DNA of 64,000 nt from an uncultured Gammaproteobacteria bacterium (GTDB taxonomy: Bacteria; Patescibacteriota; Patescibacteriia; Magasanikbacterales; GWA2-37-8), in assembly GCA_964540825.1 (NCBI GenBank), contig CAZINT010000001.1, positions 348,565 to 412,564 of the forward strand. Reading direction: 5' to 3'. The notes below the pieces were generated by a model. That model did not search any database, was not told the origin of the DNA, and worked only from the letters and a program-made list of their open reading frames with translations. Below are positions 29,865-64,000 of this stretch, piece by piece. How positions within the stretch are numbered: position 1 is the first letter of the stretch; every line of letters begins with the position of its first letter. The translations under genes were made by a program, and so were the position numbers.

Positions 29865-30152
29865 ATGCAGCTTATAAAAATAGATGGGACAACTACTGAG
29901 GTCGAGCCGCAAAATGGTAAAAAGTTTTCCCTTGATGAGCTTCGAGGCTATGTCGGAGGAACTATCGATACGGTCAGGCTTCCCAAAAGCGGTAAGTACA
30001 TGATCGTAAATGATAATGGCAAGCTGGACGGCCTGCCAAAAAATGAAAGGGCTACTGAAATCTGGAAAAAGGAATTTCCGATCAGTGAGTATCCGCACAA
30101 TAATGACGAATTGATTGTGGGGGATGTGCTGATGGGATCTCTCCAAGAATAG
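29865..30152 (+). CDS. DUF3846-like phage protein
   Basis: N-terminal pattern 'MQLIKIDGTTTEVEPQ..SLDELRGYVGGTIDTV' typical of DUF3846. Confidence 0.45.
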   Translation: MQLIKIDGTTTEVEPQNGKKFSLDELRGYVGGTIDTVRLPKSGKYMIVNDNGKLDGLPKNERATEIWKKEFPISEYPHNNDELIVGDVLMGSLQE

Positions 30153-30209
30153 AATTTAAAAACCCGCCTGCGTTCGAGCGCAAAGCGGATTTAATCAGAA
30201 ACAACATTT

Positions 30210-31022
30210 ATGTCTACAAAGAAAGATACCTCATTGGTGAAGACCGGTCAAGAAGGTCTAAGCCAAGAACAAATCGCTCTTATTACGCGCACTATTGCCA
30301 AGGGAGCCTCACCAGACGAATTACAGCTCTTTATTGGCCAATGCAACCGGACTGGCCTCGACCCCTTCTCGCGTCAAATTTATGCGATCAAACGCTGGGA
30401 TAGTCGTGAACAACGAGAAGTAATGGGCATTCAAGCAAGCATTGATGGTCTACGTTTGGTAGCTGAACGAACAGGTAAGTATGCTGGTCAAACACCGGTT
30501 GAGTGGTGTGGTAGTGATGGACAGTGGGTAGACGTATGGCTTAAAGAAGGACCACCAGTTGCAGCAAAAGTCGGCGTACTTCGCAAAGACTTTTCCGAAC
30601 CGTTAGTGGCTGTAGCAAAGTATAGAAGCTACGTTCAGACCTTCAAAAATAAACAAACCGGAAAATTTGAACCATCGAGCTTCTGGCAGAAAATGCCTGA
30701 ACTTATGCTCGGCAAGGTGGCGGAAGCATTGGCTTTAAGAAAAGCATTCCCTCAAGAACTGAGCGGACTTTATACAACCGAAGAAATGTCCAACGCCGAC
30801 GAGCAGCAATTTAAGGAACCTCCAAAAAAACCAGAAACCAAAGAAGAAGCCGCAGTTGAAGGTGAAGTGGTAGGAGAAAAAAAAGAAGTAACTGGTACAC
30901 CGCCTAACGAATCTGAATGTACTAACTGTGCAAAATTGATTACACCGGCAGAAATTGGTTTTTCTAAAAGACGCTACGGCAAAGCACTTTGTCGTGAATG
31001 TCAGAAAGGAGCACAAGTATGA
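30210..31022 (+). CDS. recT: RecT-family single-strand annealing recombinase with C-terminal zinc ribbon
   Basis: '[23 protein letters not shown]' RecT signature region; C-terminal CxxC..CxxC. Confidence 0.7.
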
Positions 31023-31849
31023 GCGAATCCTCCACTCCAGTAGTAACTAAACTCTATAAAGGCAAAGTTACAGTTGAGTTTTTTGACGAATGGCTCAATC
31101 CAGAAACAAAACGAATTAACACGCATGTTTATTTGGTGAATGGCAAACGTTGCCCAATTTCCGTTACTAAGGTAACCGGAAAACTCGATAAATCAGATGT
31201 ACTGAAAAAATGGGCCGTTGACCAAGCTAAAGACTACCTGCTCGAGTTGATCGAAAGTGGTGCTGCCGTAACAAGTGAGGACGTTCTTGAAGCCGCAAAA
31301 CAGCACACGATCAGACTCGCTAAAGCTGCTACGAGCGGTACGTTAGTTCACGAATGGGCTGAGCAATACATCAAGGGTCAAAACCCACCCATGCCAGAGG
31401 AAGACAATGTTACTAATGGAGTCATGGCATTTCTTGACTGGGTCAAGGAGTACGATGTGCGATTCATTGCCAGTGAAAAACTTGTCTACAGTAAAAAACA
31501 CGGCGTTGTTGGGCTTATGGATTGTAAATTTACCATGGGGCGCGAAGACCACAAGATCATTCACGCTGGGGATTTTAAAACAAGCTCAGGTATTTACACT
31601 GAAATGCGTTACCAAGTTAGCGGCTACCAGGCGATGGACGAAGAAGAAAGTGGCTGCGTCTATGGTGATAAATGGATCATGCGATTTGCTAAGGACGATA
31701 AGTACGACAAAAAAACTGGAGTACTCATTGAAAAAGCCGGTACCTTCGAAGCAAAAATGTTCCCTAGAGAAGAACACGAAAAGGACTTTGCCGCCTTCCT
31801 TGGCCTTTTAGCCGTAACAAAAAGAGAAGACGAATTACACGCTAAATAA
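31019..31849 (+). CDS. PD-(D/E)XK family nuclease (probable exonuclease partner of RecT)
   Basis: ATGA overlap with recT stop; '[17 protein letters not shown]' D..(D/E)xK-like motifs; position after RecT. Confidence 0.45.
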
Positions 31850-31864
31850 CTATTAAATTCTACT

Positions 31865-32107
31865 ATGGAAAACACAAAAAAGACCTTAACACCCTTCGAA
31901 CGCCTAGTTGATTTTATTGAGCACTACGAAAGCGATACTTTCTCGGCTGATAAAAGAGAAGTAACACACAAAGAAGCTGAAGTTATAGCCGAGCGCTTAA
32001 TTGTAGAAATGATTGAGGATGAGATTGATGGTGTTACGCTTAGTGGCATTCTTCTCGATCTTCGACCCGAAGAGAGCGACGAAGACGACGAAGAGCAAGA
32101 ACAGTAA
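31865..32107 (+). CDS. hypothetical acidic small protein
   Basis: 80-aa ORF with acidic DE-rich tail. Confidence 0.4.
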   Translation: MENTKKTLTPFERLVDFIEHYESDTFSADKREVTHKEAEVIAERLIVEMIEDEIDGVTLSGILLDLRPEESDEDDEEQEQ

Positions 32108-32286: not shown

Positions 32287-33171
32287 ATGACAAAAGACAA
32301 GCTGTACTTCCCGCACGACAGTAATGCCCGGCAAGATCCCAAGATTGTCGCGTTGATCAGTAAATACAAAATGGAGGGGTATGCGTGGTGGTGGATCATT
32401 ATCGAGACACTCCGCGAACAGGAAAACTATCGCCTGGACCTTTCTCAAGAATACAACCTTTATGCGATCGCATTGCAAACGCAAAGCGAAAAAGAACGCA
32501 TAAAACAGTTCTTAAAAGACTGTATTACGGAGTTTCAGCTCCTAAAAACAGATAAAAAAGAAAAATTTATTTGGAGTGAGTCGCTGTTGAACCGTATGAA
32601 GCACAAAGACGAAAAGTCTCAAAAAGCCCGAGAATCAGCGCAAAAACGATGGGGGCAAGTACCTAGCGAAGGCAATGCGAACGCATTACCGACGCAGAGC
32701 GAACGCAATGCTAAAAAAGGAAATAAAGAAAACAAAGATATTGTTGTAGCTAACGCCACTAAAGGTTCAATAAAAATTAACGACGCACTTATGCCATTAG
32801 AAGAAGTTACTTACGAGGCTGAAAATAACCCGAGTGGCAAAACCAAGTATGGGCGAAAAACGATGATGCTCTTCGCACGCTGTTACCTTGAGGCAGCCGG
32901 TATACAGCTTGAGCCGGGTGCAATATACGACGCAAATAAAATCAGCCCGGGATTATCAAAACTCTACAAGCAGCTCAAAGACCCGGACCGGGTACTCGAT
33001 GGGTTAAGGATCGCTGGCCGGTACTTCGGAAGCAAGGGGCTCGATTGGACACCTATCACGGTTTGGAAGAATTGGGAAAAAATCTGGCAATGGCACAAGG
33101 ACGGTGAAAAAACAGATAGAAACGGTGTTGCCGCACGCCACCAGGACGTGGCAGAAAGGAGGGCGCTATGA
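32287..33171 (+). CDS. phage replication initiation/replisome organiser protein (DUF4373 Lin1244-like N-terminal domain)
   Basis: 'YFPHDSNARQDPKIVALISKYKMEGYAWWWIIIE' matches DUF4373 pattern; directly upstream of DnaB. Confidence 0.5.
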   Translation: MTKDKLYFPHDSNARQDPKIVALISKYKMEGYAWWWIIIETLREQENYRLDLSQEYNLYAIALQTQSEKERIKQFLKDCITEFQLLKTDKKEKFIWSESLLNRMKHKDEKSQKARESAQKRWGQVPSEGNANALPTQSERNAKKGNKENKDIVVANATKGSIKINDALMPLEEVTYEAENNPSGKTKYGRKTMMLFARCYLEAAGIQLEPGAIYDANKISPGLSKLYKQLKDPDRVLDGLRIAGRYFGSKGLDWTPITVWKNWEKIWQWHKDGEKTDRNGVAARHQDVAERRAL

Positions 33172-34514
33172 GCAAACATGAAAATCACTACGACGAAACA
33201 ATGGAGCGCTCAGTCCTCGGATCGCTGCTCCTCGACAAAGAAGCAATCTACAAAGTTTTAGACGCACTCGAACCGGCAGACTTCTATTTTGAAAAACATC
33301 AAACCATTTACCGGGTACTTCTCGAACTGTTCAAAGCTGGTCGGGAAATTGACATGGTGCTTATTGGTCAGGAATTAGAAGCGCAGCAGTTGGTAAAAAG
33401 AATTGGCGGTTATGCTTATCTCGCTGAGCTCACCAACGCCGTCGCTACTTCCTCAAACATTGAGCACTACGCCGAAATCGTCAAAAGCCATTCCATTCGT
33501 CGCCAGCTGCTCGAAGCGCAACAAAAGAACCTTTCGATCATAGCTGACCATGAAAAAGACATTGGCACCGTCCTCGCTGAGACGCAGGGCAATATCGTTA
33601 AAATCAACGCGATCAATAAAACGGATGATTCGATCAAAGCTATTCTCCGCGAACTCGAAGAAGCTCAGGAGGCCTATTCTGTCAGGCGTGAGAATGGGCA
33701 GCAGTACATCGGCTACCGCTCCGGTATCGACAAAATTGACCAGCATATCGACGGCATCCGTCCCGGGCATATCTGGGTAGTCGGTGGCTGGACCTCAACC
33801 GGCAAAACGCAGTTTGCGCTCAATATAGTCAACAGCCTGCTCGAGCAGAGCGTGCCAACGGCAATTATCAGCCTCGAAATGAGCCGGGTGGATACCCTGG
33901 CCCGTCTGATAGGTATCAGGACCAATATGAGCTCTATGGCTGTCATTAAGGGTCGGAATGACGTTCAATCCGCGCACCAAATCGAGAGCTCCAAAGACTT
34001 CTTTCACCGCTCCCCGCTGTACGTCCACACCACTTTCTTTGACATCGAAAAAATAAAAATGTTGATCCGTAAGGACGTTTACACGTTGGGCGTGAAGTTT
34101 GTTTTGGTGGACTACGTTCAGAACATCATTAGCGAAGAGAAAGCCATGCGTGAGTATGATCTGCTCACTCAATCGGCCGTGGCGCTCCAGGCAATTGCTC
34201 GTGAGCTTGGAATCACCATCTACATTGTTTCTCAGATCAGTAACGAAAGCGAAAAGGGCAATGGCGCTGGCGCTGGGTTCAAAGGAACAGGTGCGCTCGA
34301 AGCAGTTGCTGACCTCGCCATTCGTCTTGAGAGAGATCGCAAAAAGGAAGGAGCTGACGACCTGTATGTGCCGGTAAAAATAACGATCTTTAAAAATCGC
34401 CATGGCTACACTGGCAAAATTGATAGCTACTGTATGTGGCTGAAAAGTGGAAAGTATGACGACTCGGTCATTTACATTCCACCGGAGGCACGGAGCAAAT
34501 ATGTCAGAAGTTAG
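33168..34514 (+). CDS. dnaB: replicative DNA helicase (DnaB family), phage-encoded
   Basis: N-terminal domain 'ERSVLGSLLLD', Walker A 'GGWTSTGKTQFALN', RecA-like core motifs; 448 aa. Confidence 0.8.
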   Translation: MSKHENHYDETMERSVLGSLLLDKEAIYKVLDALEPADFYFEKHQTIYRVLLELFKAGREIDMVLIGQELEAQQLVKRIGGYAYLAELTNAVATSSNIEHYAEIVKSHSIRRQLLEAQQKNLSIIADHEKDIGTVLAETQGNIVKINAINKTDDSIKAILRELEEAQEAYSVRRENGQQYIGYRSGIDKIDQHIDGIRPGHIWVVGGWTSTGKTQFALNIVNSLLEQSVPTAIISLEMSRVDTLARLIGIRTNMSSMAVIKGRNDVQSAHQIESSKDFFHRSPLYVHTTFFDIEKIKMLIRKDVYTLGVKFVLVDYVQNIISEEKAMREYDLLTQSAVALQAIARELGITIYIVSQISNESEKGNGAGAGFKGTGALEAVADLAIRLERDRKKEGADDLYVPVKITIFKNRHGYTGKIDSYCMWLKSGKYDDSVIYIPPEARSKYVRS

Positions 34515-34740
34515 AGTATTCAGATTGCATTATTGTTCTCGATGCCACGGCAAGTATCAAAACAATGTAACGGTCTTTCACGACCCCACTAATCCCTATG
34601 AACCTATCAAATACACCGATTACGACTGTCCTTGCGGCTTCTCCTACCACTTCAAACCTCGAGCAGGTGGCCGAAATAATTCCTCGGACCAAGCTCGGTC
34701 GAGCAGTGGTAGGGAAAATGATCAACTGTCGCTTCTGTAA
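34501..34740 (+). CDS. small Cys-rich (zinc-binding-like) protein, translationally coupled to dnaB (weak)
   Basis: ATG overlaps dnaB stop; 'CSRCHG..CPCG' motif; C-terminal part low complexity. Confidence 0.2.
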   Translation: MSEVRVFRLHYCSRCHGKYQNNVTVFHDPTNPYEPIKYTDYDCPCGFSYHFKPRAGGRNNSSDQARSSSGRENDQLSLL

Positions 34741-34843
34741 AGGACAAGCCAGGATCTACTTGGAAGCTCGTCAGTATCGGGTGAACTGTGCCACGTGTGG
34801 TGATGATACATATTTAAAAAATTATAATCATCCTTCTTTATGA
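34719..34843 (+). CDS. small zinc-ribbon protein (weak)
   Basis: 'MINCRFCKGQARIYLEARQYRVNCATCGDD'; two CxxC pairs. Confidence 0.2.
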
Positions 34844-35355
34844 GCGCTCCTGAAACAATTCAAAAGCGCTGGCGCGAAATGATGCAGGCTAAACTCGCCA
34901 ACGTAAAAAATATTAAGCAACTAGAGGGCTCTGACCCCAACGTAAAGCGCATTATGGAGACACTCAGGAGTTTTTACCAGCACAAAATTGACGTAGTACC
35001 TGTGCCAGAGCTGACCAATACCGGAGGGCACCTTCTCGGACACTACGTGAGTGTGGCAACGACTTCTTCAATAAAACGCGCCGAGCGTGATGCGGCCGAG
35101 CAGTGCTACGAAGAAATACTCTCATCCCTGACTTTAATGAATCGTAATGATGAAGTTGGTGTTACGGAAGCTCGATCAATGGCCAAAGAGCAAATGGGTG
35201 AATTTGCCACGGAGATTGTTTGGCGCGAGCAGCACAAAAACGCCTACGAAGCGATTGTGGATAGTACGGAAAAAACCATCTCATTTATCCAAAGCATCAT
35301 TAAAACCAAATTAAACGAGCGAGCAAGTGGAAAGCTTGCTGATGAAACAACTTGA
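34840..35355 (+). CDS. hypothetical phage protein
   Basis: 171-aa ORF, predicted helical. Confidence 0.4.
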   Translation: MSAPETIQKRWREMMQAKLANVKNIKQLEGSDPNVKRIMETLRSFYQHKIDVVPVPELTNTGGHLLGHYVSVATTSSIKRAERDAAEQCYEEILSSLTLMNRNDEVGVTEARSMAKEQMGEFATEIVWREQHKNAYEAIVDSTEKTISFIQSIIKTKLNERASGKLADETT

Positions 35356-35725
35356 TATGTTGAAACTTAGTGAGGGAACAAAAAATAAGTTATTGGCAGA
35401 TTCGTATATGGAACGTTGCGCCGCTTGCGGTAAAACTGGGACTCAGTGGCACCATGTGATGTTCTGGGGTCGGCAGCTGGACTTATGGTGGGCCATCGTC
35501 CCGGCTTGTCCCGAGTGCCATAAGCTCGTTGATACGAATAAGTCCATTGATGAGGATGGAAACGTAATGCGCGAGTTATTTCAGTGGGTGGCAATTCTTC
35601 GAATGCCGCTCAAAATGAAAGCGCAGTACCGAAAGTATGATTGGGATTTTGAACGACGTCGGCTTGATCGAAAATTTGTTGAAAACTATTGGTTTATAGC
35701 TTTAAAAATTCAGCATCATTATTAA
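35327..35725 (+). CDS. hypothetical Cys/His-rich protein (possible HNH-like or zinc finger)
   Basis: 'CAACGKTGTQWHHV..CPECH'. Confidence 0.3.
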   Translation: MESLLMKQLDMLKLSEGTKNKLLADSYMERCAACGKTGTQWHHVMFWGRQLDLWWAIVPACPECHKLVDTNKSIDEDGNVMRELFQWVAILRMPLKMKAQYRKYDWDFERRRLDRKFVENYWFIALKIQHHY

Positions 35726-35915
35726 CTAAACAAAGGGGTATGAATTTTTTAAAAAAGGTAAAACGCACGTTGGGTCTGCTTGCTACTTGTCGGGTCTGCG
35801 GCAATGAGTGTAAAAACATGGTCGATAAAATCAGACGTCAACAGATCGTTAAGTATTGCCAAAAGATCTGCCGGTTACGACGGCACAACTCAACTATTTA
35901 ATTATAATTTTTAAT

Positions 35916-37283
35916 ATGCAGCAACAAAAAATCAAAGTGGTGGAAGCGTACGAATCAAAAACTAACCCACGTGGAAATAATTTTAAAGGCCAAGCATTTA
36001 AAGATTTAGTGGCGAGCATAAAAGAAAAAGGCGTTCTTGTTCCCGTCCTCGCTCGTTTAACTGGATCAATTGGAAAAGAACCTCATATAGAAATTATTGC
36101 TGGTTCTCGTCGTTTCCGAGCGGCTAAAGCGGTAGGGCTTGAAGAGATCCCGGCATACATTGTGGAAATGACTGATGACGAAGCGCGGGAGGCTCAGATT
36201 ATCGAAAATTTGCAGCGTCAGGACGTACATCCGCTTGAGGAAGCTGAGGCCTATAGCCACATGATCAAAACGACAGCAGATATTAAAGCCGTAGCCGCTA
36301 AAGTCGGCAAAAGCGAATCATACATCCACAACCGGATTATGCTTTGTAACTTAGCCGAGGAAGTCAAACAGGCTTATCGGGAAGGTGAAGTCAACGACGG
36401 ACATGCTGTGGAGATAGCACGCCTTTCCCCGGGCGGCGATCAACAAAAAACACTTACCCACATAAAACAGGAAACATCCTTTGGCCGGTCCCTACCAGTT
36501 AGACTGCTTAGTACATGGATTGAAATCACGTTTTTTAATGAGCTCGCTTTTCAACCCTGGCTCAAAGATAAAGAAGCGATGGCGGCTGTGGGGCTCTGCA
36601 AAGAGTGTCCACCCGAAACTAATACTCTATTTGGAGAAGTAAAGGAAGGAGCTTGTAGCACCACCCGTTGCCACAAACGCAAGATGCAAAAATATATTCA
36701 GTGGATGAAAGAGAAAACGCCTGGCTTGATACTGGTGAGTACTGAATACGGCAGCCGTCCCGGGATGATCAGTGAGTACGATTATGAGTTGGTCGCTAAA
36801 GGCACAAAGAATTCAAAACCAGGGCTCATTGTCCATGGCAAGAACCGGGGCAAGCTGATTACCGTCCTAGTAAAAAATCAGCCGGTGAATCAGATGACAC
36901 CTGAAGAAAAGGCGGCACACGAAAAAAAGATGAAACTCGAGCGTGAGGCTGAAAAGAAGAAACAGGAAGCCGAGACCACACGGGAAAATCGTAAAATGGA
37001 AGAAACCCTAAAAAATATTACCTGGCCTTTAAAAGAAAAACACCTTGCCCCCCTGTTTACCATACTGACGGAACATGCGGACGGTCTTGATGATATAGCA
37101 AAACGCCGGAAGCTTGAAGGCAAACGAGATGAGGAAGGCGATTACGAAAATGTCCATGAAACTATTAAAAATTGCTTTGGCGCATCTGACCCGCTGACTA
37201 AAATGCAGATGATCGTGGAAGTGGCGTTAATGCAAATGTGGTCTGGTAACGATCGAAGCCAGATGATGAAAAAGTTTAACTAA
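35916..37283 (+). CDS. ParB/Srx-domain nuclease-like protein
   Basis: ParB N-terminal box 'IEIIAGSRRFRAAKAVGLEEIPAYI', 'ENLQRQDVHPLEEAEA'; long C-terminal extension with Cys cluster and Lys/Glu-rich coil. Confidence 0.65.
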   Translation: MQQQKIKVVEAYESKTNPRGNNFKGQAFKDLVASIKEKGVLVPVLARLTGSIGKEPHIEIIAGSRRFRAAKAVGLEEIPAYIVEMTDDEAREAQIIENLQRQDVHPLEEAEAYSHMIKTTADIKAVAAKVGKSESYIHNRIMLCNLAEEVKQAYREGEVNDGHAVEIARLSPGGDQQKTLTHIKQETSFGRSLPVRLLSTWIEITFFNELAFQPWLKDKEAMAAVGLCKECPPETNTLFGEVKEGACSTTRCHKRKMQKYIQWMKEKTPGLILVSTEYGSRPGMISEYDYELVAKGTKNSKPGLIVHGKNRGKLITVLVKNQPVNQMTPEEKAAHEKKMKLEREAEKKKQEAETTRENRKMEETLKNITWPLKEKHLAPLFTILTEHADGLDDIAKRRKLEGKRDEEGDYENVHETIKNCFGASDPLTKMQMIVEVALMQMWSGNDRSQMMKKFN

Positions 37284-37300: not shown

Positions 37301-37732
37301 ATGGAGGCTACACCACAACAAAAAGCGGAGCGCGCTATGGAGATTTGTTCTGAGATCGAAGCGAAAAAACAGGAATTGGCTGATTTGTTTGAGGGGGGGG
37401 GCGTAGAGGAAAATATGATCGTTCCTAAAAAAAGGAAATATACCAAACATGTTAAAACTGAGGGTACAAAATCTGACAGTAAAACGATAAAAACGAATGG
37501 TGTTGTAAAAACGTGTTGTGGTTCTCGAGGATGGAAGCACAAATCCGACTGTTCGAATAAGCTGCCACCAGCTTTACGCGCTACCCAGGAAGCAATGACC
37601 GGGGGTGCGGAGGGTGATGGTAAGGAGCAAGAACTCCGTTGTGGTCAGTGTGAAGATCGATTTACCGGTGTGCTCCTGGACGCTGTTTGTCCGAGCTGCA
37701 ACTCAACGGATGTTTATAAAATGTATCTCTAG
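37301..37732 (+). CDS. hypothetical protein with C-terminal zinc ribbon; contains G9 homopolymer
   Basis: 'RCGQCED..CPSCNS'; G-run at 37393-37401 inside CDS. Confidence 0.4.
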   Translation: MEATPQQKAERAMEICSEIEAKKQELADLFEGGGVEENMIVPKKRKYTKHVKTEGTKSDSKTIKTNGVVKTCCGSRGWKHKSDCSNKLPPALRATQEAMTGGAEGDGKEQELRCGQCEDRFTGVLLDAVCPSCNSTDVYKMYL

Positions 37733-37735
37733 TAT

Positions 37736-37955
37736 GCAATGGCAAAGATTGATGCACTACAAATGCCCGAAGTGCGGCCTCGATCTTTATAAAGATGATC
37801 CGGGTGTTAACTGTTCCAGCATTAACACCCCTACACCATGCGGTTTCTTTATCAAGAAAGAACGGCTAGAAAAGATTAGGCAAGATATGGCGAAGCCAAA
37901 GTCAAGGTGTGGTGGAGTTTTCTTTAATTCAGGGCAGGGTCCCATTAAACAATAG
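37736..37955 (+). CDS. small zinc-ribbon protein
   Basis: 'YKCPKCGLDLY..CSSINTPTPCG'. Confidence 0.3.
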
Positions 37956-37958
37956 AGT

Positions 37959-38363
37959 ATGCAGTTGGAACATCAATTCTGTTCTCCCGAATTGTCAAAA
38001 CGATTAAAGGAATTGGGGGTGTCCCAAAGCAGTTTATTTTGGTGGGCAGAGAATCATGACGAGGAAATAGTATTGCTAGTTTATGAAACAGATGTTGGCT
38101 TTATTCTTCCCAGCGGCGGCGGTTTTGATCCTAGACTGCTTAATAATTGCCGGATGTTTTCAGCCTTCACCGTTGCTGAGCTGGGCTCAATTCTTTGGCA
38201 CAAAGCTTCACCAGAAAATATTCTAAAAGCATATGGAGTAGTGTTCAATGTTTCAGGTACGACGGTAATCACTGCCGAGGGTTTATCTCAATGCATGGAA
38301 AACCCTGAACTCGGTGCAAAAATGTTGATTTATTTGTTGGAAAATAAGCTGATAAATCTATGA
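37959..38363 (+). CDS. hypothetical phage protein
   Basis: 134-aa ORF. Confidence 0.4.
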   Translation: MQLEHQFCSPELSKRLKELGVSQSSLFWWAENHDEEIVLLVYETDVGFILPSGGGFDPRLLNNCRMFSAFTVAELGSILWHKASPENILKAYGVVFNVSGTTVITAEGLSQCMENPELGAKMLIYLLENKLINL

Positions 38364-39130: not shown

Positions 39131-39156
39131 TTTTCAATCACTCAAGCAATAGGAGT

Positions 39157-39924: not shown

Positions 39925-39934
39925 TTTATTTTGT

Positions 39935-40306
39935 ATGTCTAGAACTAAAGATAGAAACACTCAAGAAGAACAAGAAAGGATTCTGGTACTCGCTGAAAGA
40001 GTGAAACTGATGTTTGGGTTTTGTGTTGATTTGATACCCGACCTTGATCTCTTAAAGCGGACTGTTGACGGAACTGCTGATCGATACTCTATGGCATTGT
40101 CGGCTGCACCAATCCTTGGAGCTTTTGGACAGGATTATGAGGAGATCGCTTTTAAAAATCAGCTTGAACATGAACGAGCCAAAGCCCTTTGCAATCTTAT
40201 AGAAACGCTAGACAGAACAGAAAAAGAAAGGCAAGAGTTTGTAAAAAATCAGGGAGTAAAAGCAAGAGGGCGAGCTGATATTGTTCGAATGTTAGGGCTA
40301 GGTTAA
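39935..40306 (+). CDS. hypothetical phage protein
   Basis: Start moved to ATG 39935 to avoid overlap. Confidence 0.35.
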   Translation: MSRTKDRNTQEEQERILVLAERVKLMFGFCVDLIPDLDLLKRTVDGTADRYSMALSAAPILGAFGQDYEEIAFKNQLEHERAKALCNLIETLDRTEKERQEFVKNQGVKARGRADIVRMLGLG

Positions 40307-40311
40307 AAAAT

Positions 40312-40382
40312 GATGGCGTGGTTTGGCAAAGGTAAGCACGCCCCCTCAAGGGGAGGTCCGGGCTCGAAACCCGGCGCCATCG
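40312..40382 (+). tRNA. tRNA-like element with anticodon-loop CCTCAAG (anticodon UCA, would read UGA); possible phage opal-suppressor or tRNA-derived structure
   Basis: Perfect 7-bp acceptor GATGGCG/CGCCATC, D-stem GTTT/AAGC, anticodon stem 4/5 bp, perfect T-arm CCGGG-CTCGAAA-CCCGG; but 2-nt variable region and C33 are atypical. Confidence 0.3.
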
Positions 40383-40402
40383 ACTTCTCTCAAGGAGCAG
40401 CA

Positions 40403-55962: not shown

Positions 55963-56235
55963 ATGGAAAAAAAATATCTCATCATAGCGTGGGCAGTAAT
56001 AGTCCTGATAGCGGTCGGGACATTCTCTAGCGTCTGGAATGCTTACACTCTCCACCAAAGACAGCCGCCAGCAGTTGAAGATCAGCTGAGCGCAAATTCA
56101 CAGAATGGTTTGCCCGGCATTTATAAAGTGACGCCTGGCACGCTCCCGGACGGAGAAGGTACAGCTATCCTCACCGATAGCCATGGCCAAGTGATTGCTT
56201 CGCCTTCATCCATTGTTACCCTTAACACAAATTAG
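55963..56235 (+). CDS. truncated tail-fibre N-terminal anchor fragment
   Basis: TM helix plus 'GLPGIYKVTPGTLPDGEGTAILTDSHGQVIASPSSIVTL', homologous to N-terminus of next gene. Confidence 0.35.
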   Translation: MEKKYLIIAWAVIVLIAVGTFSSVWNAYTLHQRQPPAVEDQLSANSQNGLPGIYKVTPGTLPDGEGTAILTDSHGQVIASPSSIVTLNTN

Positions 56236-56236
56236 T

Positions 56237-57499
56237 ATGCAGCGATTACATAAAATCTTGGGTGGTATAGCGGTAGGAGCATTTTTTATCGTAGCCTCTC
56301 TTTTTAACCCGGAGAGTGCTTTGAGTGCGCTTACTAAGTATGGCCTGCCGGGGATTTACAATTCAAGCCAATTCACCCTGACTGACGGTAGCGGCTCGGC
56401 TCTTTCGACCGACTCAAACGGGCGATTGATCCTTTCTCCTTCCTCGAACATTACTATTTCGGGGGGTGTAAATGGCCACTGGTACCCTTCCAGTAATAAT
56501 ACGAAGGACTTGGGTTTTCCAACCTCCTCATGGAGGAATTTAAGCGTTTCGGGGACCGCTCAAATCGCAACGCTTGTTGTCGGGCCGGGGGGTTGTATCG
56601 GGTGTTCGAGTGGTGGAATAGCCACGGTACCAAGTGGTGGAACCGGTCGAGATGCTTTTACAGCGAACACCGTCCTACTTGGCAATGGTACGAGCGCTCT
56701 TGCGACAACCACGCTCGGCACGAATGGTCAGGTGCTCACGCTCGTTAATGGTGTTCCAACCTGGCAAACAACGAGCACTGCTGCTAATATCTCCGGCAAT
56801 TTACCTGTTACCGCTTTAAACAGTGGCACTAGCGCTTCAAACGCTACTTTCTGGCGCGGCGACGGAACCTGGTCAAGCGTGCTGCAAAGTACCTTTGGTG
56901 TGATTGGTGACTTTGCCGTCAATACCAACAAATTTAATGTTACAGCCAGCAATGGAAATACCGCGATTGCTGGAACTTTGGCAGTAGTCGGTAATACAGC
57001 TTTGACCGGAACTTTGGGAGTAACGGCCACATCAACTTTCACGACTACCACGGTGGCCAGCACGACCATCACACGGGCGAATGTTAATACGCTAGTTGTG
57101 GGCTCCTGTACGGGTTGTGGGGGAACGGCAACTTACTACGCTAGTACCTTTTCTAAAGCAATCAATAATACTACCGACATTGTTTTGGCCCACGGTCTTG
57201 GTAAAACACCTTCTCTGATTACCGCTGACTGTCCCTATGCTTCTGTTCGCGGTTATTCTCAATCAAACGGTGCCTGGACAGCTGGTAGTACTGCGAATAG
57301 CTACGCTTGGAGCGAAGGAGGTTCGGCAAATGGTAGTGGCATGAGTAACTCCGCAAATTTAATCCATATTGAAACTGCAACTGATGGGGCTATTTTTGAT
57401 GCCACCGTCGGTTCCGTTGATGCTACAAATATTACTTTGACTGTCAGCAACAATCAAAATACCGGTAACACCCGTCGTTGCACCGTTACTGCACAATAA
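56237..57499 (+). CDS. tail fibre-like protein (paralog B)
   Basis: N-term 'GLPGIYNSSQFTLTDGSGSALSTDSNGRLILSPSS' and C-term 'SNNQNTGNTRRC' shared with paralog A. Confidence 0.5.
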   Translation: MQRLHKILGGIAVGAFFIVASLFNPESALSALTKYGLPGIYNSSQFTLTDGSGSALSTDSNGRLILSPSSNITISGGVNGHWYPSSNNTKDLGFPTSSWRNLSVSGTAQIATLVVGPGGCIGCSSGGIATVPSGGTGRDAFTANTVLLGNGTSALATTTLGTNGQVLTLVNGVPTWQTTSTAANISGNLPVTALNSGTSASNATFWRGDGTWSSVLQSTFGVIGDFAVNTNKFNVTASNGNTAIAGTLAVVGNTALTGTLGVTATSTFTTTTVASTTITRANVNTLVVGSCTGCGGTATYYASTFSKAINNTTDIVLAHGLGKTPSLITADCPYASVRGYSQSNGAWTAGSTANSYAWSEGGSANGSGMSNSANLIHIETATDGAIFDATVGSVDATNITLTVSNNQNTGNTRRCTVTAQ

Positions 57500-57535
57500 A
57501 AATAATTAAAATTATTTAATTTTATTGCATTTTTT

Positions 57536-57793
57536 ATGCCAGAAGCAAACGAAACAAAAATCATTGTCCCTGAAAAAACTGTGCCTGCGTCCGGGTATAA
57601 ACTTCACTCGTACACAATTGATCCAATCCGCAATTTATTGAACGTTGTACTTTCTAAACTCGATGAGAACGGGGAGCGGATTGACGAAACAATGGTGGTG
57701 AGCTCCATCGACTGTTCTGAACACGCTATGGAAATCAATGAAATAATTAATTCATTGGTAGCCGCGCAGCTGCCTGGCGCACAACTTGAATAA
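57536..57793 (+). CDS. hypothetical phage protein
   Basis: 85-aa ORF. Confidence 0.3.
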   Translation: MPEANETKIIVPEKTVPASGYKLHSYTIDPIRNLLNVVLSKLDENGERIDETMVVSSIDCSEHAMEINEIINSLVAAQLPGAQLE

Positions 57794-58148
57794 TATGGCG
57801 GATATGGAGGTACACGTAGACAAACACGTTGATGTTAATAAACATATCGACGTCACTAAAACTTATTTACCCATTACTGCAGTGGTGGCGATGGCTGTAG
57901 TTATAATCGCTGGCGGGATAGCCTGGGGAACTCAAAGAAACGAGCTACGCGTGCTGGCGTTGCAAGTAGAAGAATTAAAACAAGCAACCGCACTACAAAT
58001 CACCGAAGTAAAAGCGGATTTAAAGGATGTACCGACTCGCAAGGAGTATGAAGGCCTTACTCGCAACTACGACGCTTTAACCAATAGTTACGAGCGTTTA
58101 GACGCCAAGCTCGATAAGGTAACCGAATATTTTAATATTAAAAAGTAA
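57786..58148 (+). CDS. single-TM coiled-coil protein (holin/spanin-like candidate)
   Basis: 'ITAVVAMAVVIIAGGIAWG' TM then coiled coil. Confidence 0.35.
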   Translation: MNNMADMEVHVDKHVDVNKHIDVTKTYLPITAVVAMAVVIIAGGIAWGTQRNELRVLALQVEELKQATALQITEVKADLKDVPTRKEYEGLTRNYDALTNSYERLDAKLDKVTEYFNIKK

Positions 58149-58153
58149 TTTTT

Positions 58154-59248
58154 ATGCCAGAAATTGATATTTCAAAATTTGAAAACCTGGGCGTGCTCGA
58201 TGAGCTTATGCGCGAGACGGACCATATCCGCGGCTTGGAAGCTGAAAAAGGAAGCCCTGTTTTTGTTAAAAAAATGGAGCCAATTCAGACAAGCGAAGGT
58301 GAAGTAATTGATTGGTCTCCGTATGAACCGGAAGCTGAATTACAGAAAAAAGGTAGTTTTGAGAGTAATGCATGTGTCAGTTTTTCGGGCAACAATGTTA
58401 CAGAATACCTCGCTAACTTTGAAATGGCTCGAGATCCAGAGTTCAAAAAAGTACTGGAAATGCTCGGCTTGGTAAAAAATGGTAAGGCAAATTTTTCAGA
58501 TCGGCGCACGGCAAAAGGGAGTGGCACTGATCCAGACAAAGGAAACTACGTTAGTGCTGTTGATGACTATCTGCGTAATTTCTTTTTCTGCCCTGAAGAC
58601 ACCTGGCCTTTCCCAGAAGGAATGACACGAGCAGAGTTTTATGCTGCTCTACCGGTAGAGGTGCGTGATTTCGGTAAAAAATTGAATGAGTATCTTAAGC
58701 TTTGGACCCAGTATTGCAAAAATGCGGTCGTGAACGGCATAACGGTTCCTTATTCCTCACCAGAAGAATTGTGGGAGAGCCTGCAAATTTCGCCGGTTTG
58801 GGTTTCGGTGATGATCCCTTATCAAATGGATGGTGAGTTTATCCGCAGCGAAGAACCTATGGCCGCAATTCAGGCGGGGTATCGCCCTTACGGGCATCGT
58901 ATCTTGGTTCGAAAAGGTGTCAAAGGTAAATACTATGAAGGACATGACAACTATCGAAAGCAGATCGTTAAATTTGATTGGGACTACCCATTTGGCTCCT
59001 GTAAGATTATGCAGTTTGAAAAAAAAAGCTTGGCGGAATTTATTCAGGTTGGAAACTCAATCGCATTTTTAGCAAAGGGTGGAAAATTGGCCGGGAAATA
59101 TATCGGCTATGGCGACAGCGATGAGAAAGATGGTGTGGCTGGGGGTGATGTCTTGAAAGCAGTACACGGTAATTATTCCAAAACAAAACCACGCACAGTG
59201 CTCGATGAGTTTCCTCCGAACTACGTTGGTAAATTATTCATTAAATAA
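58154..59248 (+). CDS. hypothetical protein, possible Cys-His peptidase-like endolysin candidate
   Basis: 'SNACVSFSGNN' Cys and downstream His residues; position between membrane proteins. Confidence 0.35.
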   Translation: MPEIDISKFENLGVLDELMRETDHIRGLEAEKGSPVFVKKMEPIQTSEGEVIDWSPYEPEAELQKKGSFESNACVSFSGNNVTEYLANFEMARDPEFKKVLEMLGLVKNGKANFSDRRTAKGSGTDPDKGNYVSAVDDYLRNFFFCPEDTWPFPEGMTRAEFYAALPVEVRDFGKKLNEYLKLWTQYCKNAVVNGITVPYSSPEELWESLQISPVWVSVMIPYQMDGEFIRSEEPMAAIQAGYRPYGHRILVRKGVKGKYYEGHDNYRKQIVKFDWDYPFGSCKIMQFEKKSLAEFIQVGNSIAFLAKGGKLAGKYIGYGDSDEKDGVAGGDVLKAVHGNYSKTKPRTVLDEFPPNYVGKLFIK

Positions 59249-59254
59249 AAAAGT

Positions 59255-59665
59255 ATGGAACTCAGCTCTCCACGTTTTAAACTTGTTCTGTGCGACTTCA
59301 AAAAGGTTGTCGTCGGTATGCTGATTGCTGCAGCTGGAGCAGCGCTTACCTACCTGCAAGACGCTATCCCGGCCATTGATTTCGGCCAGTACGCCCTGTT
59401 TGCAGTGGCTCTAAACACAATGATCGTCAACACATGCCGTAAGCTTCTTGCTGCCAAAGTGAGTGGTCAGCCCTTTGATAAAGAACAGCTAAAAAAATTA
59501 GCCATTGGTACAGCTGTTGGTTTGGCCGGAGTTGTTGCAACCTATTTTCAAGGAGCAGCTGAACATCTTGATCTTGGGACGTATGGGCCAATGCTCGTCG
59601 CTATTAACTCCACTTTTCTCAACCTCGGCCGCCTCTGGATTGCGGAACACGGGAAGCTCATATAA
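59255..59665 (+). CDS. small multi-TM membrane protein (holin-like candidate)
   Basis: Hydrophobic helices 'VVVGMLIAAAGAAL', 'ALFAVALNTMIV', 'AIGTAVGLAGVVATYF'. Confidence 0.4.
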   Translation: MELSSPRFKLVLCDFKKVVVGMLIAAAGAALTYLQDAIPAIDFGQYALFAVALNTMIVNTCRKLLAAKVSGQPFDKEQLKKLAIGTAVGLAGVVATYFQGAAEHLDLGTYGPMLVAINSTFLNLGRLWIAEHGKLI

Positions 59666-59698: not shown

Positions 59699-60334
59699 AT
59701 GGCAATTGTAAATGGTCAAAAAGGTATCTGGGTAAAAAAGAAAGGCGATGCTTCGCCGGTCTTTGTTGGTTTGGGCCAGGCTGATACGCCGGATGAACAG
59801 ATCGAGGCGAGCAAACAGGGTATTCTAAAAAGTATCGGTGGCAATGTTGAATGGTCCGGCGAAGACCCAAGCGACTTTAACATTCAGGCGGCAACCGGTA
59901 ACGTAAAGGCGTTTACGCCAGCGACTCCCGATGTTGTCGGGGACACCTATTTTGATACCCTGTTAAAACAGACTCAGCAAGAATACCAAGCGCAGCGTGG
60001 ATTGGCGCAGCAAAGTTACTCTCAATTTACCCAGCAGCTCAAAGAGTCTAGGCAGCTCTTTAACAAAAATTTGGAGCAGTCCTATGGCAAAGCTCTGCAA
60101 AAAGTTAACGTGAACGCGTATGATCGTGGTGTTGGTGATAGTGGGGTTAAAACTGAAAATTTTAGAGACACCACGAAGGATAAAGAGTATACCAACGAAC
60201 AGCGTGATTTCGAAGACAAGCAGCGCGAGGCTATTGCTTCCACTGATTTACAGAACAGGCTCGATGCGATTGGTCGCACCGAGGAACGTGCCAGGGCATC
60301 GTTTAAAAGCCCGTACGGTCAATACTCATACTAA
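59699..60334 (+). CDS. hypothetical phage protein
   Basis: 211-aa ORF. Confidence 0.4.
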   Translation: MAIVNGQKGIWVKKKGDASPVFVGLGQADTPDEQIEASKQGILKSIGGNVEWSGEDPSDFNIQAATGNVKAFTPATPDVVGDTYFDTLLKQTQQEYQAQRGLAQQSYSQFTQQLKESRQLFNKNLEQSYGKALQKVNVNAYDRGVGDSGVKTENFRDTTKDKEYTNEQRDFEDKQREAIASTDLQNRLDAIGRTEERARASFKSPYGQYSY

Positions 60335-60336
60335 TT

Positions 60337-62064
60337 ATGCCTACTAACCCTTATGCCACGGCCGCGCGTGTAGATCCACAACGCGAGCAACAGGCTTTAC
60401 TCAAGCTCAAGCAGAATCCTCAGAAGTTGGCCGAACTTGGCCTTGCACCTGACGAGGATTTCTCTACGATTAAAAGTGATCCGGTTAAGTATAACCGGGT
60501 GCTTTCGTATGTGAAGGGGGAGGCATATAAAAATCCTGCGTACAGCGCTGTTACTGGGGGTGTAACCAAGCCAGAGTTTGCTCAAGGGCAGCTCGGCCCC
60601 GATTACTCAAAGACTGCTTCAGAGTACAGCGCTAACCGTGGGGCCGAGCTTAAGAGTACCTATAATGTTGATCCGCTCAAGAGCCGTGCTGACGAATACC
60701 AAGCTGGGAGTTATTCTGCCCTGCCTCGTATTACTGAAGAAGTTAAAAAGAAAGGTGGCTATGATGTTGAAGGTTTGAAAGATAATTTTACCAAGTTGCA
60801 AACTGGCTATGCGGACGCATACCGACGTTTTGTTGCTGGCGAGCTGGCACCAGCTGAATATGCAGCTAAAGTTTCAGAGCTCAGCACCACCGCTCGATCG
60901 CTCGAGAAAGCTCAAACTGGGCTTAAACAAGAGGTAGATGCAGCGGTTGGCAATTACAATACTTCTGCCGCGCGTGCAAAGAATGAGTTTGATAATGCCT
61001 ACGCTAAGTATGCCGAAACGCTGAAGACAGATACGGCCGGGTATGCTGATACGCGAGCTGAAAAGCTGAAGGCAGCTGAAGCGATGTACGAAAGCGTCAA
61101 ATCTCTCCTGGATGAAGCTCAGAAGGACGCGAAGGGTGAGCTCCGCGAAGTTGGTGGAAATCTCTATCAGGTTACGTATGACGATGCTGGCAAAGCAGTT
61201 ACTAAGCTTGTACAGAGAAAGGGCGGTGGTGGAACTGGCGGGGGCGATGGCACAATTCCGGTGGCTCCAATCTCAATTGTTCCAGGCCAGCAGCCTGTAG
61301 CGGCCGGTCCAACATTTGAAGAATTTGTTAAGCAAAAACAGAACGAACAAGGGATCTCGTTTACTCCGGCTGCTAAAGCTAAATTGAAGGTAGAGTACGA
61401 TCAGAAATTCCCGGCGAAACCCCAACAATCCACCCAAACCACGGCGGCGGATATTAGCAAATTTGATCCAACAGTGCAGCGTATTATTCGTGGCACGATG
61501 AAAGTTGAGGATGTCGGTGAGGTTGAGTATCGAAAATTAAAAAATCAAATCAACCAGGCTGAACAGATGGGTCTTATCAAAACAGCAGATCCAAATAAGT
61601 ACACCCCGGAGAATGATAACCAGGCAAAATCTGCCGGTTTCGCCACGCGTATTTCCGAGGCCAATAAAATCTTTGAGGATATTGAACCTGATATTAACAA
61701 CCTCAGTGCTTCGAGAATGTTCTATGAACGTAAAGCCCCTAATCTTTTAAAGTCAGAAACATTCCAGCAACAGGAGCAGGCCGAACGCGACTTTATAAAT
61801 GCTGTTCTTCGTCGCGAGTCCGGTGCCGCTATTTCGCCGTCTGAGTTTGAAAGTGCAGCTAAGCAGTATTTCCCTCAACCTGGCGATTCCAACTCTGTAC
61901 TTCAGCAAAAGAAAAAGAACCGGGCCACCATTTTCAATAATATTTCCCGTGAAGCTGGTGAAGGATTCAAGGTTGAAGATGGAGTCCCGGCAGCTGCCGA
62001 AGAAAAAGTTATCAATGGCGCTCGCTATACAAAGGTAAACGGGGGCTGGCAGTTGGCGCAATAA
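60337..62064 (+). CDS. hypothetical large phage protein
   Basis: 575-aa ORF, coiled-coil-rich. Confidence 0.45.
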   Translation: MPTNPYATAARVDPQREQQALLKLKQNPQKLAELGLAPDEDFSTIKSDPVKYNRVLSYVKGEAYKNPAYSAVTGGVTKPEFAQGQLGPDYSKTASEYSANRGAELKSTYNVDPLKSRADEYQAGSYSALPRITEEVKKKGGYDVEGLKDNFTKLQTGYADAYRRFVAGELAPAEYAAKVSELSTTARSLEKAQTGLKQEVDAAVGNYNTSAARAKNEFDNAYAKYAETLKTDTAGYADTRAEKLKAAEAMYESVKSLLDEAQKDAKGELREVGGNLYQVTYDDAGKAVTKLVQRKGGGGTGGGDGTIPVAPISIVPGQQPVAAGPTFEEFVKQKQNEQGISFTPAAKAKLKVEYDQKFPAKPQQSTQTTAADISKFDPTVQRIIRGTMKVEDVGEVEYRKLKNQINQAEQMGLIKTADPNKYTPENDNQAKSAGFATRISEANKIFEDIEPDINNLSASRMFYERKAPNLLKSETFQQQEQAERDFINAVLRRESGAAISPSEFESAAKQYFPQPGDSNSVLQQKKKNRATIFNNISREAGEGFKVEDGVPAAAEEKVINGARYTKVNGGWQLAQ

Positions 62065-62073
62065 ATAAATTCT

Positions 62074-63543
62074 ATGCCTACTCAGATTAAAAACTTTATT
62101 TCCGACCAAGAAATGGCCGAGCTCGAAAAGCAGGGTAATACTACACCGGCCATTAAAGCGCCGCCTGCTTTTATTTCTGATGCTGATATGGCAAAAATGC
62201 AGCCAAAGAAAAAAGGATTTCTTAGAAGTTTTGCTGAAGGAATAGTGCGTCCATTTGGTGAATTTGCGGTTTCATTAGAGAATGCTGCTGAAGCAACGGA
62301 GGCTTTGGTGAAAGGTAAAGGGGCCGCAGTAGCCGATCAGAAGTTAGCTCAAAATATAAAGCTGCCATTTATAGGAGAAACAAAACCGGCACTTACTGGC
62401 CAGGAAGGGTTTGTTGAAGGTACAAAAAAGATGGCTGGTTATGGTTTGGACATTGGGTCCAATTTTGTGGGTATGCAGGGGTTGGGACAGTTGGGGAAGG
62501 CTGGGGCTAAGGGGGCAGCACTACAGGCTGTTAAGCAGGGTGCTAAGTATGGGGCAGCTACAGGGGCTATAAACAGCGGAGGGGTGGCTCTGGAGGAGAA
62601 TAAGGGGGCCAGGGAGGTTGCCACTGATACCGCAACCGGGGGCATTTTTGGTGGTGTTTTGGGTGCGCTCGGCGGTGCTGCCTCAGGAGCCGGCGGCAAA
62701 TTCTTCCGTAAGGTTGGTCAGGCCGTTAAAAACAGAACCCCGGAAGGTGTGGCAGAGAAAGCCGCTTCTGAAGCTATGGATGTTTTGACCCCTGAACTTA
62801 GTAAAACAAAGGGCATCCAGGCTGTAAAAAGGACTGGTACTGAAGTTACGAATGAACTGGGCGAAATTGCTCTTAAGACTGGTAAGCGCGAGCATGAGAT
62901 GGCTGAAGCGGTGAAGGATCTTGTTACTCCAAAAAAGACCATGAGCCAGAACCTCGAAAGTGTTAAGGGTGGTTTGGCAAGGGAGGCAGAGAACGCGAAG
63001 GCCTTATTGCAAAGCCGGGACGTTCCTTTTACTCGAGCAGAGTTGAAAAAACACTTATCGGGTGTGAAGCTTCCCTCGAGCGTAAAGCGTGATGATTATT
63101 TGCGTGGTTTGTATGATGATGTAACTGAGCGCTTCTTTGACCTGCTCGAAGAAAATCCAAAAAAACTTTCTTCTATTTTGGATAATCGGAAAGCGCTTGA
63201 TAAAATCGTTGAGGAGGAGATCCCGAATATTTGGAGCGAAACACGCCACAGCCCATTGCAAAAATCGTTTACAAGCTTCCGCAATAGCCTGCATGATTTT
63301 ATTGAGAAAAAGGCTGGTCCAGAAATTGGAGGTGAATTTCGTGATAGTCTGAAGAAGCAAAGCTTGATGTATGATGCGATCGACAATTTGGCACCGAAGG
63401 CTTTCAAGGAAGTCGGTACGAATGCTCCTGGGCGTATTCTACAAAAACACCCGATCCTTAAAAAGATCGGGCGAGACGCTGCTTTAGGTGCTGGAGCGGC
63501 ATTAGGAGGAGGAGCAATTATGAGGGGTCTTCTTGAGAACTAG
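62074..63543 (+). CDS. hypothetical Gly/Ala-rich phage protein
   Basis: 489-aa ORF with GxGxxG-type low-complexity core. Confidence 0.45.
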   Translation: MPTQIKNFISDQEMAELEKQGNTTPAIKAPPAFISDADMAKMQPKKKGFLRSFAEGIVRPFGEFAVSLENAAEATEALVKGKGAAVADQKLAQNIKLPFIGETKPALTGQEGFVEGTKKMAGYGLDIGSNFVGMQGLGQLGKAGAKGAALQAVKQGAKYGAATGAINSGGVALEENKGAREVATDTATGGIFGGVLGALGGAASGAGGKFFRKVGQAVKNRTPEGVAEKAASEAMDVLTPELSKTKGIQAVKRTGTEVTNELGEIALKTGKREHEMAEAVKDLVTPKKTMSQNLESVKGGLAREAENAKALLQSRDVPFTRAELKKHLSGVKLPSSVKRDDYLRGLYDDVTERFFDLLEENPKKLSSILDNRKALDKIVEEEIPNIWSETRHSPLQKSFTSFRNSLHDFIEKKAGPEIGGEFRDSLKKQSLMYDAIDNLAPKAFKEVGTNAPGRILQKHPILKKIGRDAALGAGAALGGGAIMRGLLEN

Positions 63544-63650
63544 TGTCATGTTTTCCGGTTTTGAAGATATGGTCCCATACCCGGCCAACTAAGACTCCGA
63601 CTGCTCCACCGACTAAGAGAATGATGATAGTGTTCATAATTAAAATAAGA

Positions 63651-63929
63651 TTATTCAACGGTTTCTAAGTTATCTAAAGCTTCGCCCATCTCATCGTAGC
63701 TTTCCCAGGCGTAGTATCTCGCGTCCTCGATATTACTGTTGGCTTGTTCGAGCATATCCTGATTTTCCTGTAGCTCGTCCTCCTTTATTCTTAGGTCGTA
63801 ACTGAGGTTACTATTATCAGCTTCGAGTTCTTGTATGGTTTCATTCTTGGTTTTGATCTTCGCACCCATCGCTATAATGATGATGGCTAGGAAAATTATT
63901 AAACCAGTTTTACCTGGTGACTCATTCAT
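63651..63929 (-). CDS. hypothetical TM plus coiled-coil protein on opposite strand (possible start of a divergent module)
   Basis: 92-aa minus-strand ORF; a ~31-aa TM peptide ORF also lies on minus strand at ~63547-63639. Confidence 0.35.
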   Translation of the reverse strand: MNESPGKTGLIIFLAIIIIAMGAKIKTKNETIQELEADNSNLSYDLRIKEDELQENQDMLEQANSNIEDARYYAWESYDEMGEALDNLETVE

Positions 63930-64000
63930 AGACTCCTCCTTAAAATTTAAATGGATTAGTGGGATCAGGTATGTTTCTCTTATAAAGAGTTATGCCCTTA

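Follow-up and report, generated by a model that had tools for sequence, protein, structure and literature searches.

What is the long run of phage-like genes that follows a tRNA-Gln gene in the chromosome of a Candidatus Magasanikbacteria member, and how is it held there when no integrase is in sight? The question arises from a 64,000-nt stretch of DNA (hereafter the window; coordinates are positions in it unless another locus is named). Its left 29 kb is ordinary chromosome, with ProS, DnaG, RpoD, MurE, FtsE, and FtsX, and the 34.8 kb of the element that can be seen run on to its right edge. A first-pass annotation had described a large phage-like element in which the modules for replication, packaging, and the head look complete, a description that Pfam and PHROG matches and an HK97-fold capsid model bear out. 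We propose, with a probability of roughly 0.7, that the region is a chromosomally integrated, apparently intact, short-tailed prophage lying in the host tRNA-Gln(UUG) gene, that its own tRNA compensates for the gene it breaks, and that its integrase is encoded at the right end, beyond the window. The large terminase and the HK97-fold capsid expected of a tailed-phage (Caudoviricetes) prophage were both found.

The left junction carries most of this reading. A scan for FtsX in 185,579 species genomes returned 65 loci, the closer ones nearly all from Candidatus Magasanikbacteria or other Patescibacteria; a tRNA-Gln gene is present in 45 of the 65 and lies nearly always just downstream of ftsX. 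The closest matches, L044 (95% FtsX identity) and L059 (91%), are both metagenome-assembled genomes (MAGs) of Candidatus Magasanikbacteria. By these comparisons the host is a member of Candidatus Magasanikbacteria, within the Patescibacteria or Candidate Phyla Radiation (CPR), as the first-pass idea of a small-genome symbiont lineage had anticipated. Both loci are empty sites, and comparison with them fixes attL to the base: blastn synteny with either one breaks off at 29229, within the T-loop of the FtsX-linked tRNA-Gln(UUG). The host tRNA of the window is identical to that of L044 through ...GGTTCGATTCC and divergent beyond; the base-for-base match reaches ...CTAGGTTCGATTCC, after which the window continues with AACCAGTGG... 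and L044 with TAGTCCCCGAAC. Of the attachment core, the window shows only the right limit (...GGTTCGATTCC). What remains of the host gene (29174 to 29229, plus strand) is its 5' two-thirds. The last ~12 nt, that is, the 3' strands of the T and acceptor stems, are gone and the acceptor stem is left unpaired; the remnant scores 26.8 bits in Rfam (threshold, 29) and was also missed by ARAGORN. The missing 3' piece (TAGTCCCCGAAC) is absent throughout the window, as are the genes that follow the tRNA in L044 and L059, among them those for a FAD-dependent protein and an ABC transporter. A functional host tRNA is thus not rebuilt at attL, and rebuilding at attR would require a phage-supplied 5' 60 nt. 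The left boundary of the element, formerly put at 29865, has to be moved to ~29230, taking in a spacer on the element side of the junction (29230 to 29273, AACCAGTGGATTGAACC...; no counterpart in the empty sites), a tRNA gene (29274 to 29347), and an ORF (open reading frame) at 29464 to 29802, which encodes on the plus strand a 112-amino-acid (aa) protein with a hydrophobic segment and no family match.

This tRNA gene, 44 nt inside the junction on the plus strand, is an intact tRNA-Gln(UUG) with an encoded CCA (found by ARAGORN; 61.9 bits in Rfam), followed by a terminator-like hairpin (29363 to 29390, plus strand). It is absent from the empty sites. It is identical to the host-type tRNA-Gln at 58 of 72 positions, with differences in the acceptor and anticodon stems, and at no more than 63 of 72 to any of the 46 tRNA-Gln genes of the Magasanikbacteria-lineage loci; the longest exact run that it has in common with the truncated host gene is ~9 nt. 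Integration would have joined a short core in attP, by site-specific recombination, to the T-loop of the host tRNA, and the phage tRNA-Gln would compensate for the broken host gene, making the prophage-borne copy necessary to the lysogen. Such an arrangement has been defined as tRNA-dependent lysogeny: attB lies in a tRNA gene, the common core (~8 to 17 bp) is too short for the gene to be rebuilt, and a cognate tRNA of the phage complements the loss (Guerrero-Bustamante and Hatfull, mBio 2024, PMC10865867). Its demonstration is so far confined to actinobacteriophages, apart from a single hint from a Lactobacillus johnsonii prophage (Lj965), and in Fionnbharth the phage tRNA was deleted to test stable lysogeny (PMC10865867). 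With an attB that overlaps a host tRNA gene and an intact phage tRNA inside the inserted DNA, the window matches tRNA-dependent lysogeny in every visible feature.

The same site is occupied in a second genome. In L046, a different Magasanikbacteria MAG (FtsX, 69%), a related element lies at 10972 to 17950, directly behind tRNA-Gln and in the same orientation, with its genes in the same order (annealing protein, exonuclease, initiator, DnaB) and identities to the window of 78% for DnaB, 62% for the initiator, and 63% for ORF 34840. That related elements were inserted twice, independently, at a single tRNA strongly favors site-specific integration and disfavors an assembly artefact. Unlike the broken copy of the window, the tRNA-Gln of L046 is intact (rebuilt). 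Past the T-loop, the window reads CCAA..., which is the T stem of the L046 type (CCAAG) and not that of the host (CCTAG), and which thus fits a phage-derived right half of attL. No integrase was found in the 7 kb of the L046 element visible before its contig ends.

The absence of an integrase and of a repressor had been noted for 34 kb. The scan against Pfam and PHROGs covered every plus-strand ORF of 40 aa or more at 29464 to 63543, 51 in total. The integrase half of that statement stands: there is no integrase family match anywhere in the window, chromosomal part included (e.g., beside tRNA-Lys, at 16.8 kb). The repressor half is weaker; none is recognisable in the visible element, and since many small ORFs match nothing, a repressor may be among them. 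The missing integrase is best explained by a window that would stop ~3 kb short of the right end of the element. This prediction follows L215, a more distant relative whose integrase gene comes behind the late genes, beside attP. The order in L215 is late genes, a 321-aa homolog of ORF 58154 directly followed by a small transmembrane protein, a Phage_integrase protein (PF00589), a tRNA-like segment, hairpins, and early genes. Within L215 4801 to 6100, the integrase is followed ~320 bp further on by a 29-nt segment resembling a tRNA T arm and 3' acceptor strand (GCGTGGGTTCAATTCCCACCCGTACCTCA); the Rfam match of this segment is not significant by itself. This stretch is likely the int-attP arrangement of this phage group. 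L215 belongs with the window by its DnaB (60% identity), its initiator, and its homologs of ORFs 58154, 40310, and 34598. Integration of an L215-type genome would leave a tRNA followed by the early genes at attL, with the integrase gene at the opposite end, next to attR, and the attL picture so predicted is the one seen in L046 and in the window. The full tRNA of the window occupies the place where L215 has only a tRNA fragment in attP, which makes it reasonable, as a speculation, that it may stem from an imprecise excision that captured the rebuilt tRNA of a former host.

The extent of the unseen part can be estimated from another relative, L201 (37,370 bp), with 19.4 kb between its left end and the capsid gene, compared to 19.5 kb between attL and the capsid gene in the window. 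If L201 is a whole genome of the same layout, we infer that the element of the window would measure ~37 kb and end near 66 to 67 kb. By the gene order of L215, a tyrosine integrase would be encoded at ~64 to 67 kb. The element does continue beyond 64000. A strand switch at 63543 suggests that a differently organised block begins there; its visible start (63545 to 63929, minus strand) consists of small transmembrane ORFs of 32 and 92 aa, and another minus-strand gene ends at the window edge.

Several points weigh against the proposed reading. No integrase, attR, attP, or att direct repeat was found within the visible 34.8 kb. The two relatives that serve as models are only moderately related to the element (DnaB, 60% for L215; capsid, 71% for L201), and the family shows poor conservation to the right of the fibres, which makes the extrapolated right end soft. 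A search for the element-type tRNA-Gln in IMG/VR and Joint Genome Institute (JGI) metagenome contigs gave no match, so that an independent free-phage copy is lacking. That the host tRNA-Gln is essential and single-copy is an assumption. Finally, only one junction lies in the window, and the join rests on the assembly.

The rival that survives best, and which we consider unlikely, is a defective or "grounded" prophage that was integrated at tRNA-Gln and later lost its integrase and lysogeny module, the element tRNA now being the working copy of the host. A broken host tRNA would indeed select for retention of the element, and the integrase and a recognisable repressor are missing from 34.8 kb. 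Decay of this kind is not what the rest of the element looks like: its modules are all intact, the coding density is 96%, and the hallmark genes are free of frameshifts. Moreover, the right end is out of view, and it is at exactly that position that L215 keeps its integrase.

Less probable still is a temperate phage without an integrase of its own, inserting through a host (Xer-like) or an unrecognised recombinase, with the phage tRNA-Gln making the insertion survivable. It draws on the lack of an integrase in the visible 34.8 kb, in the opening 7 kb of the element in L046, and in the visible parts of the L111-type relatives described below, and on P0055, a more distant CPR phage that occurs free and integrated and lacks a Pfam integrase in the 10 kb to each side of attP. 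In every one of these cases, however, parts of the genome are out of view. The T-loop of a tRNA is a typical target of phage tyrosine integrases, and L215 encodes an integrase beside its tRNA-fragment attP.

An assembly artefact, in which a free and possibly lytic phage genome was mis-joined to the chromosome at a tRNA-like sequence, appears very unlikely. The single junction leaves room for it, as does the occurrence of many relatives as separate contigs of ~34 to 41 kb, but the break falls exactly at the T-loop, a classical integrase target, and the exact run of ~9 nt between the host and element tRNAs is far below the k-mers used by assemblers. An independent MAG in which a related element occupies this tRNA-Gln locus speaks against it as well, and the composition is similar on both sides of the junction (GC fraction, 0.471 versus 0.461; tetranucleotide correlation, 0.85). 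Least credible is the phage-plasmid or episome that the first-pass annotation had entertained, which ParB and an initiator encoded by the element would maintain. DnaB, a DUF4373 initiator, and a ParB_N/HTH_ParB protein are present and no integrase is in view, yet a site-specific tRNA junction connects the element directly to 29 kb of chromosome, a related element occupies the same locus in L046, ParB-like proteins are widespread in ordinary phages, neither a ParA-type family match nor a repeat array accompanies this one, and among 72,556 plasmids nothing matches the capsid meaningfully.

The gene content, to which we now turn, is that of a prophage whose visible modules look complete. The 51 ORFs all lie on the plus strand, with no credible minus-strand gene at 29464 to 63543, so that the co-directionality reported earlier holds. 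The early genes begin with a recombination set at 29865 to 31849, made up of a DUF3846 protein (29865 to 30152; E = 1.7e-8), a RecT annealing protein with a C-terminal CxxC pair (30210 to 31022; E = 2.5e-32), and an exonuclease (30998 to 31849; phrog_298, E = 2.8e-24). The replication genes follow at 32287 to 34514, namely, an initiator (32287 to 33171) matching Lin1244_N, formerly DUF4373 (E = 6.7e-15), and phrog_2562, and a DnaB helicase (33168 to 34514) identified by family match. Family matches thus support each of these earlier assignments, as they do for ParB, the two terminase subunits, and the capsid. After a group of small proteins without family matches (34598 to 35901), three of which bear paired CxxC motifs, comes a 475-aa protein (35856 to 37283) with ParB_N and HTH_ParB matches. 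It had been called a ParB-nuclease; such ParB_N/HTH proteins often occur in phages, with 18 PHROG families matched. The at least six small Zn-ribbon proteins of the earlier description correspond, at the level of motifs, to paired CxxC motifs in five small ORFs and to those appended to RecT and ParB. The HNH assignment was not upheld, as neither candidate ORF (35327 to 35725 and 40310 to 40669) matches any family in Pfam or PHROGs.

Some 12 small to medium ORFs of unassigned function, a few of them matching PHROGs that are themselves of unknown function, occupy 37301 to 41898 on the plus strand. Between them and the packaging genes, at 41867 to 42911, lie a Cpn10/GroES-like co-chaperonin (41867 to 42145), a small ORF, and a peptide deformylase (42417 to 42911). 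Neither the co-chaperonin nor the deformylase was in the earlier list, and the same holds for the adaptor and nozzle-like proteins below. A peptide deformylase just upstream of the terminase is conserved in the window, L109 (4257 to 4772), and L201 (3409 to 4198), in the window and L201 together with the GroES-like Cpn10.

The packaging genes (43325 to 45296, plus strand) encode a small terminase subunit (43325 to 43906; GP3_package) and a large one (43806 to 45296) that matches Terminase_6N at 22.2 bits (cut-off, 22) and phrog_979 (E = 6e-38). The large subunit is 40 to 60% identical to terminases on IMG/VR contigs, and together with the capsid it answers the search of viral databases that had been suggested. 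Directly 3' of it, a 682-aa protein (45303 to 47351) is the probable portal by its position, its size, and weak PHROG matches (phrog_332, 6.6e-11; phrog_64, 3.7e-4). It is 48 to 63% identical to the gene product that follows the large terminase in relatives and has no Pfam match and no PDB sequence match. The scaffold-like protein (~47740 to 48705, start uncertain) is named from its position and has no family match. The major capsid protein (48726 to 49730) matches phrog_9953 (E = 2e-38), and an AlphaFold2 model built from 32 homologs (mean predicted local distance difference test score [pLDDT], 76) matches the capsids of cyanophage A-1(L), SU10, Mic1, and HK97, with E values down to 2e-11.

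Three head- or neck-associated ORFs, conserved in relatives and unassigned in function, follow at 49867 to 51802. Next come an SU10-type head-to-tail adaptor (51893 to 52606; PF24175, E = 4e-19) and a nozzle-like virion protein of 565 aa (52608 to 54305; phrog_3287, phrog_511), the best-conserved late protein, with 60 to 75% identity across relatives. Searched by sequence against PDB, the nozzle, adaptor, and portal proteins gave no match. The fibre duplication noticed earlier was recovered: two fibre-like proteins (54474 to 55946 and 56195 to 57499) with a small ORF between them have their C-terminal 140 aa in common at 37% identity, and relatives have PTL_trimer at the fibre position. The probable lysis region, a function assigned tentatively from the predicted proteins, extends from 57536 to 59665 and comprises a 120-aa transmembrane and coiled-coil protein (phrog_736, a weak spanin match), a 364-aa protein of unassigned function, and a 136-aa holin-like protein with multiple transmembrane segments; transmembrane character is what supports the holin-like calls of the first reading. 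Three large proteins of 211, 575, and 489 aa (59699 to 63543), resembling internal virion or ejection proteins through weak matches (phrog_342, phrog_35431), complete the plus-strand series. They are poorly conserved, and the last protein of the window is almost without homologs; searched in genomes and metagenomes, it gave no match.

None of the 51 ORFs matches a tape-measure, tube, or sheath family, and none exceeds 682 aa. Because SU10-type adaptor, nozzle-like, and ejection-protein-like genes are present and tape-measure, tube, and sheath genes are not, the virion would be short-tailed and podovirus-like with an SU10-type neck, in line with the short tail that had been suggested from the lack of a tape-measure-sized gene.

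The gene starts themselves show some peculiarities. Three late genes start inside the motif (A/T)TTTTTATGCCAGAA, at 47734 to 47748, 57530 to 57544, and 58148 to 58162. Starts encoding Met-Pro occur in ~11 to 12 of the 51 element genes versus 3 of 27 host genes, and no obvious Shine-Dalgarno sequence precedes the starts.

Among deposited phages, the family of the element is without a nucleotide-level relative; a comparison with 50,697 phage records showed no nucleotide similarity. The capsid has 33 homologs among 5.8 billion proteins; one of them is the source itself, on an NCBI contig of 416,063 bp, and the others, 39 to 74% identical, come from metagenomes or Patescibacteria MAGs. One of the capsid relatives lies in a 137-kb contig (L109) and several on the contigs of ~34 to 41 kb mentioned above, and the capsid identity of the relatives that make up the family is 53 to 74%. 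The late module is common to the relatives at 45 to 75% identity, the early and far-right regions are mosaic, and RecT occurs too widely to be of use. The contigs that carry close relatives are interrupted in the fibre region, or their 10-kb flanks stop short of the ends. In a second branch of the capsid family (L111, L204, L208, and L211), the early genes are oriented opposite to the late ones, with a tRNA-Met(CAT) gene between the two modules (e.g., L111 4706 to 4778).

The kinship of P0055 with the window is limited to the replication module (DnaB, 55%). With identical DnaB, this phage is found free at 36 to 37 kb (L196 and L198) and integrated behind an ftsQ-like gene within the 617-kb contig ERZ5996431 NODE_2 (L197 7026 to 7383). 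Its junction, at L197:7101, involves no tRNA and shows the imperfect common core AGTGTC(GC/TT)ACA(A/T)TATATCTTGG, which, compared by eye with the Escherichia coli dif consensus, is loosely dif-like. A 36-nt tandem repeat in one of its early proteins (238 or 262 aa) varies in copy number between L196 (13152 to 13398) and L197 and L198 (13152 to 13470), the copies of the phage being otherwise 99.9% identical.

As for the host side, many of the closest MAG records (L044, L045, L046, L048, L059, and others, which are CAZ... third-party annotation [TPA] assemblies) are titled "uncultured Gammaproteobacteria." FtsX and the tRNA synteny point to Magasanikbacteria/Patescibacteria, and these labels are probably wrong. 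Three genes of the chromosomal part, encoding a VirD4/TraD-like coupling-protein homolog (261 to 2642; NCBIfam matches weak), a PD-(D/E)XK nuclease (21373 to 22389; the mechanical ORF call overlaps tRNA-Gly, and its TTG start at 21373 is probably too early), and a RecD/TraA-like helicase (23587 to 24948), may be remnants of another mobile element.

Among known systems, the nearest in logic are the actinobacteriophages with tRNA-dependent lysogeny (Fionnbharth, LeBron, Gaia, and Cain, among others), in which attB likewise overlaps a host tRNA gene and no rebuilding of the tRNA occurs at the junction (PMC10865867). There, too, close relatives differ in tRNA rebuilding, Cain versus Ximenita being the counterpart of the window versus L046. 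The present case differs in its CPR host, its tRNA, Gln(UUG), its podovirus-like virion, and a phage tRNA that lies 44 nt from the crossover. In virion architecture, the closest parallel is Escherichia phage SU10 (Kuravirus) and other adaptor/nozzle-neck phages, with which the element has in common the SU10_adaptor, a nozzle-like protein directly after it, an HK97-fold capsid model matching SU10 chains, and the lack of a tape measure. However, its capsid, portal, and nozzle proteins show no detectable resemblance in sequence to solved structures, its genome would be about half the size and temperate, and its early module is different. The nearest deposited capsids, though of the same capsid family, are very distant (25 to 28% identical) and belong to TM7 phage DolZOral124_53_65, which like the element has a CPR host, Myxococcus phages Mx8 and Mx9, Stenotrophomonas phage BUCT555, and Manatee Spring metagenomic phages. 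Mx8 is a temperate short-tailed phage.

The first-pass remark that phages of symbionts with small genomes have been poorly described holds by now only in part. Groundwater metagenome surveys of Patescibacteria report temperate phages as well as prophages, the latter of ~40 kb in ultra-small CPR genomes, and describe lysogeny as common (PMC12455944; PMC12911398). The words "integrase" and "tRNA" do not occur in the main text of the former, nor does "integrase" in that of the latter, and the prophages detailed in PMC12455944 are from Paceibacteria, compared to Magasanikbacteria here. CPR prophages and tRNA-dependent lysogeny have thus both already been described, and the points of interest of the present locus are its host lineage, the pair formed by L046 and the window, and a phage family without a nucleotide relative among deposited phages.

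Altogether, the window offers a reference sequence, well delimited and nearly complete, for a podovirus-like phage family of Magasanikbacteria. The element of the window, with its own tRNA and a host gene that is not rebuilt, and that of L046, with a rebuilt one, form a natural comparison for the evolution of such systems. CPR genomes are tiny and their tRNA sets are probably minimal. If a prophage disrupts a tRNA gene that is probably single-copy and supplies the sole working copy, it would be hard for the host to lose, which bears on why lysogeny is reported to be common in Patescibacteria. Should an integrase and an unrepaired tRNA be confirmed at the right end, tRNA-dependent lysogeny would extend to the Candidate Phyla Radiation.

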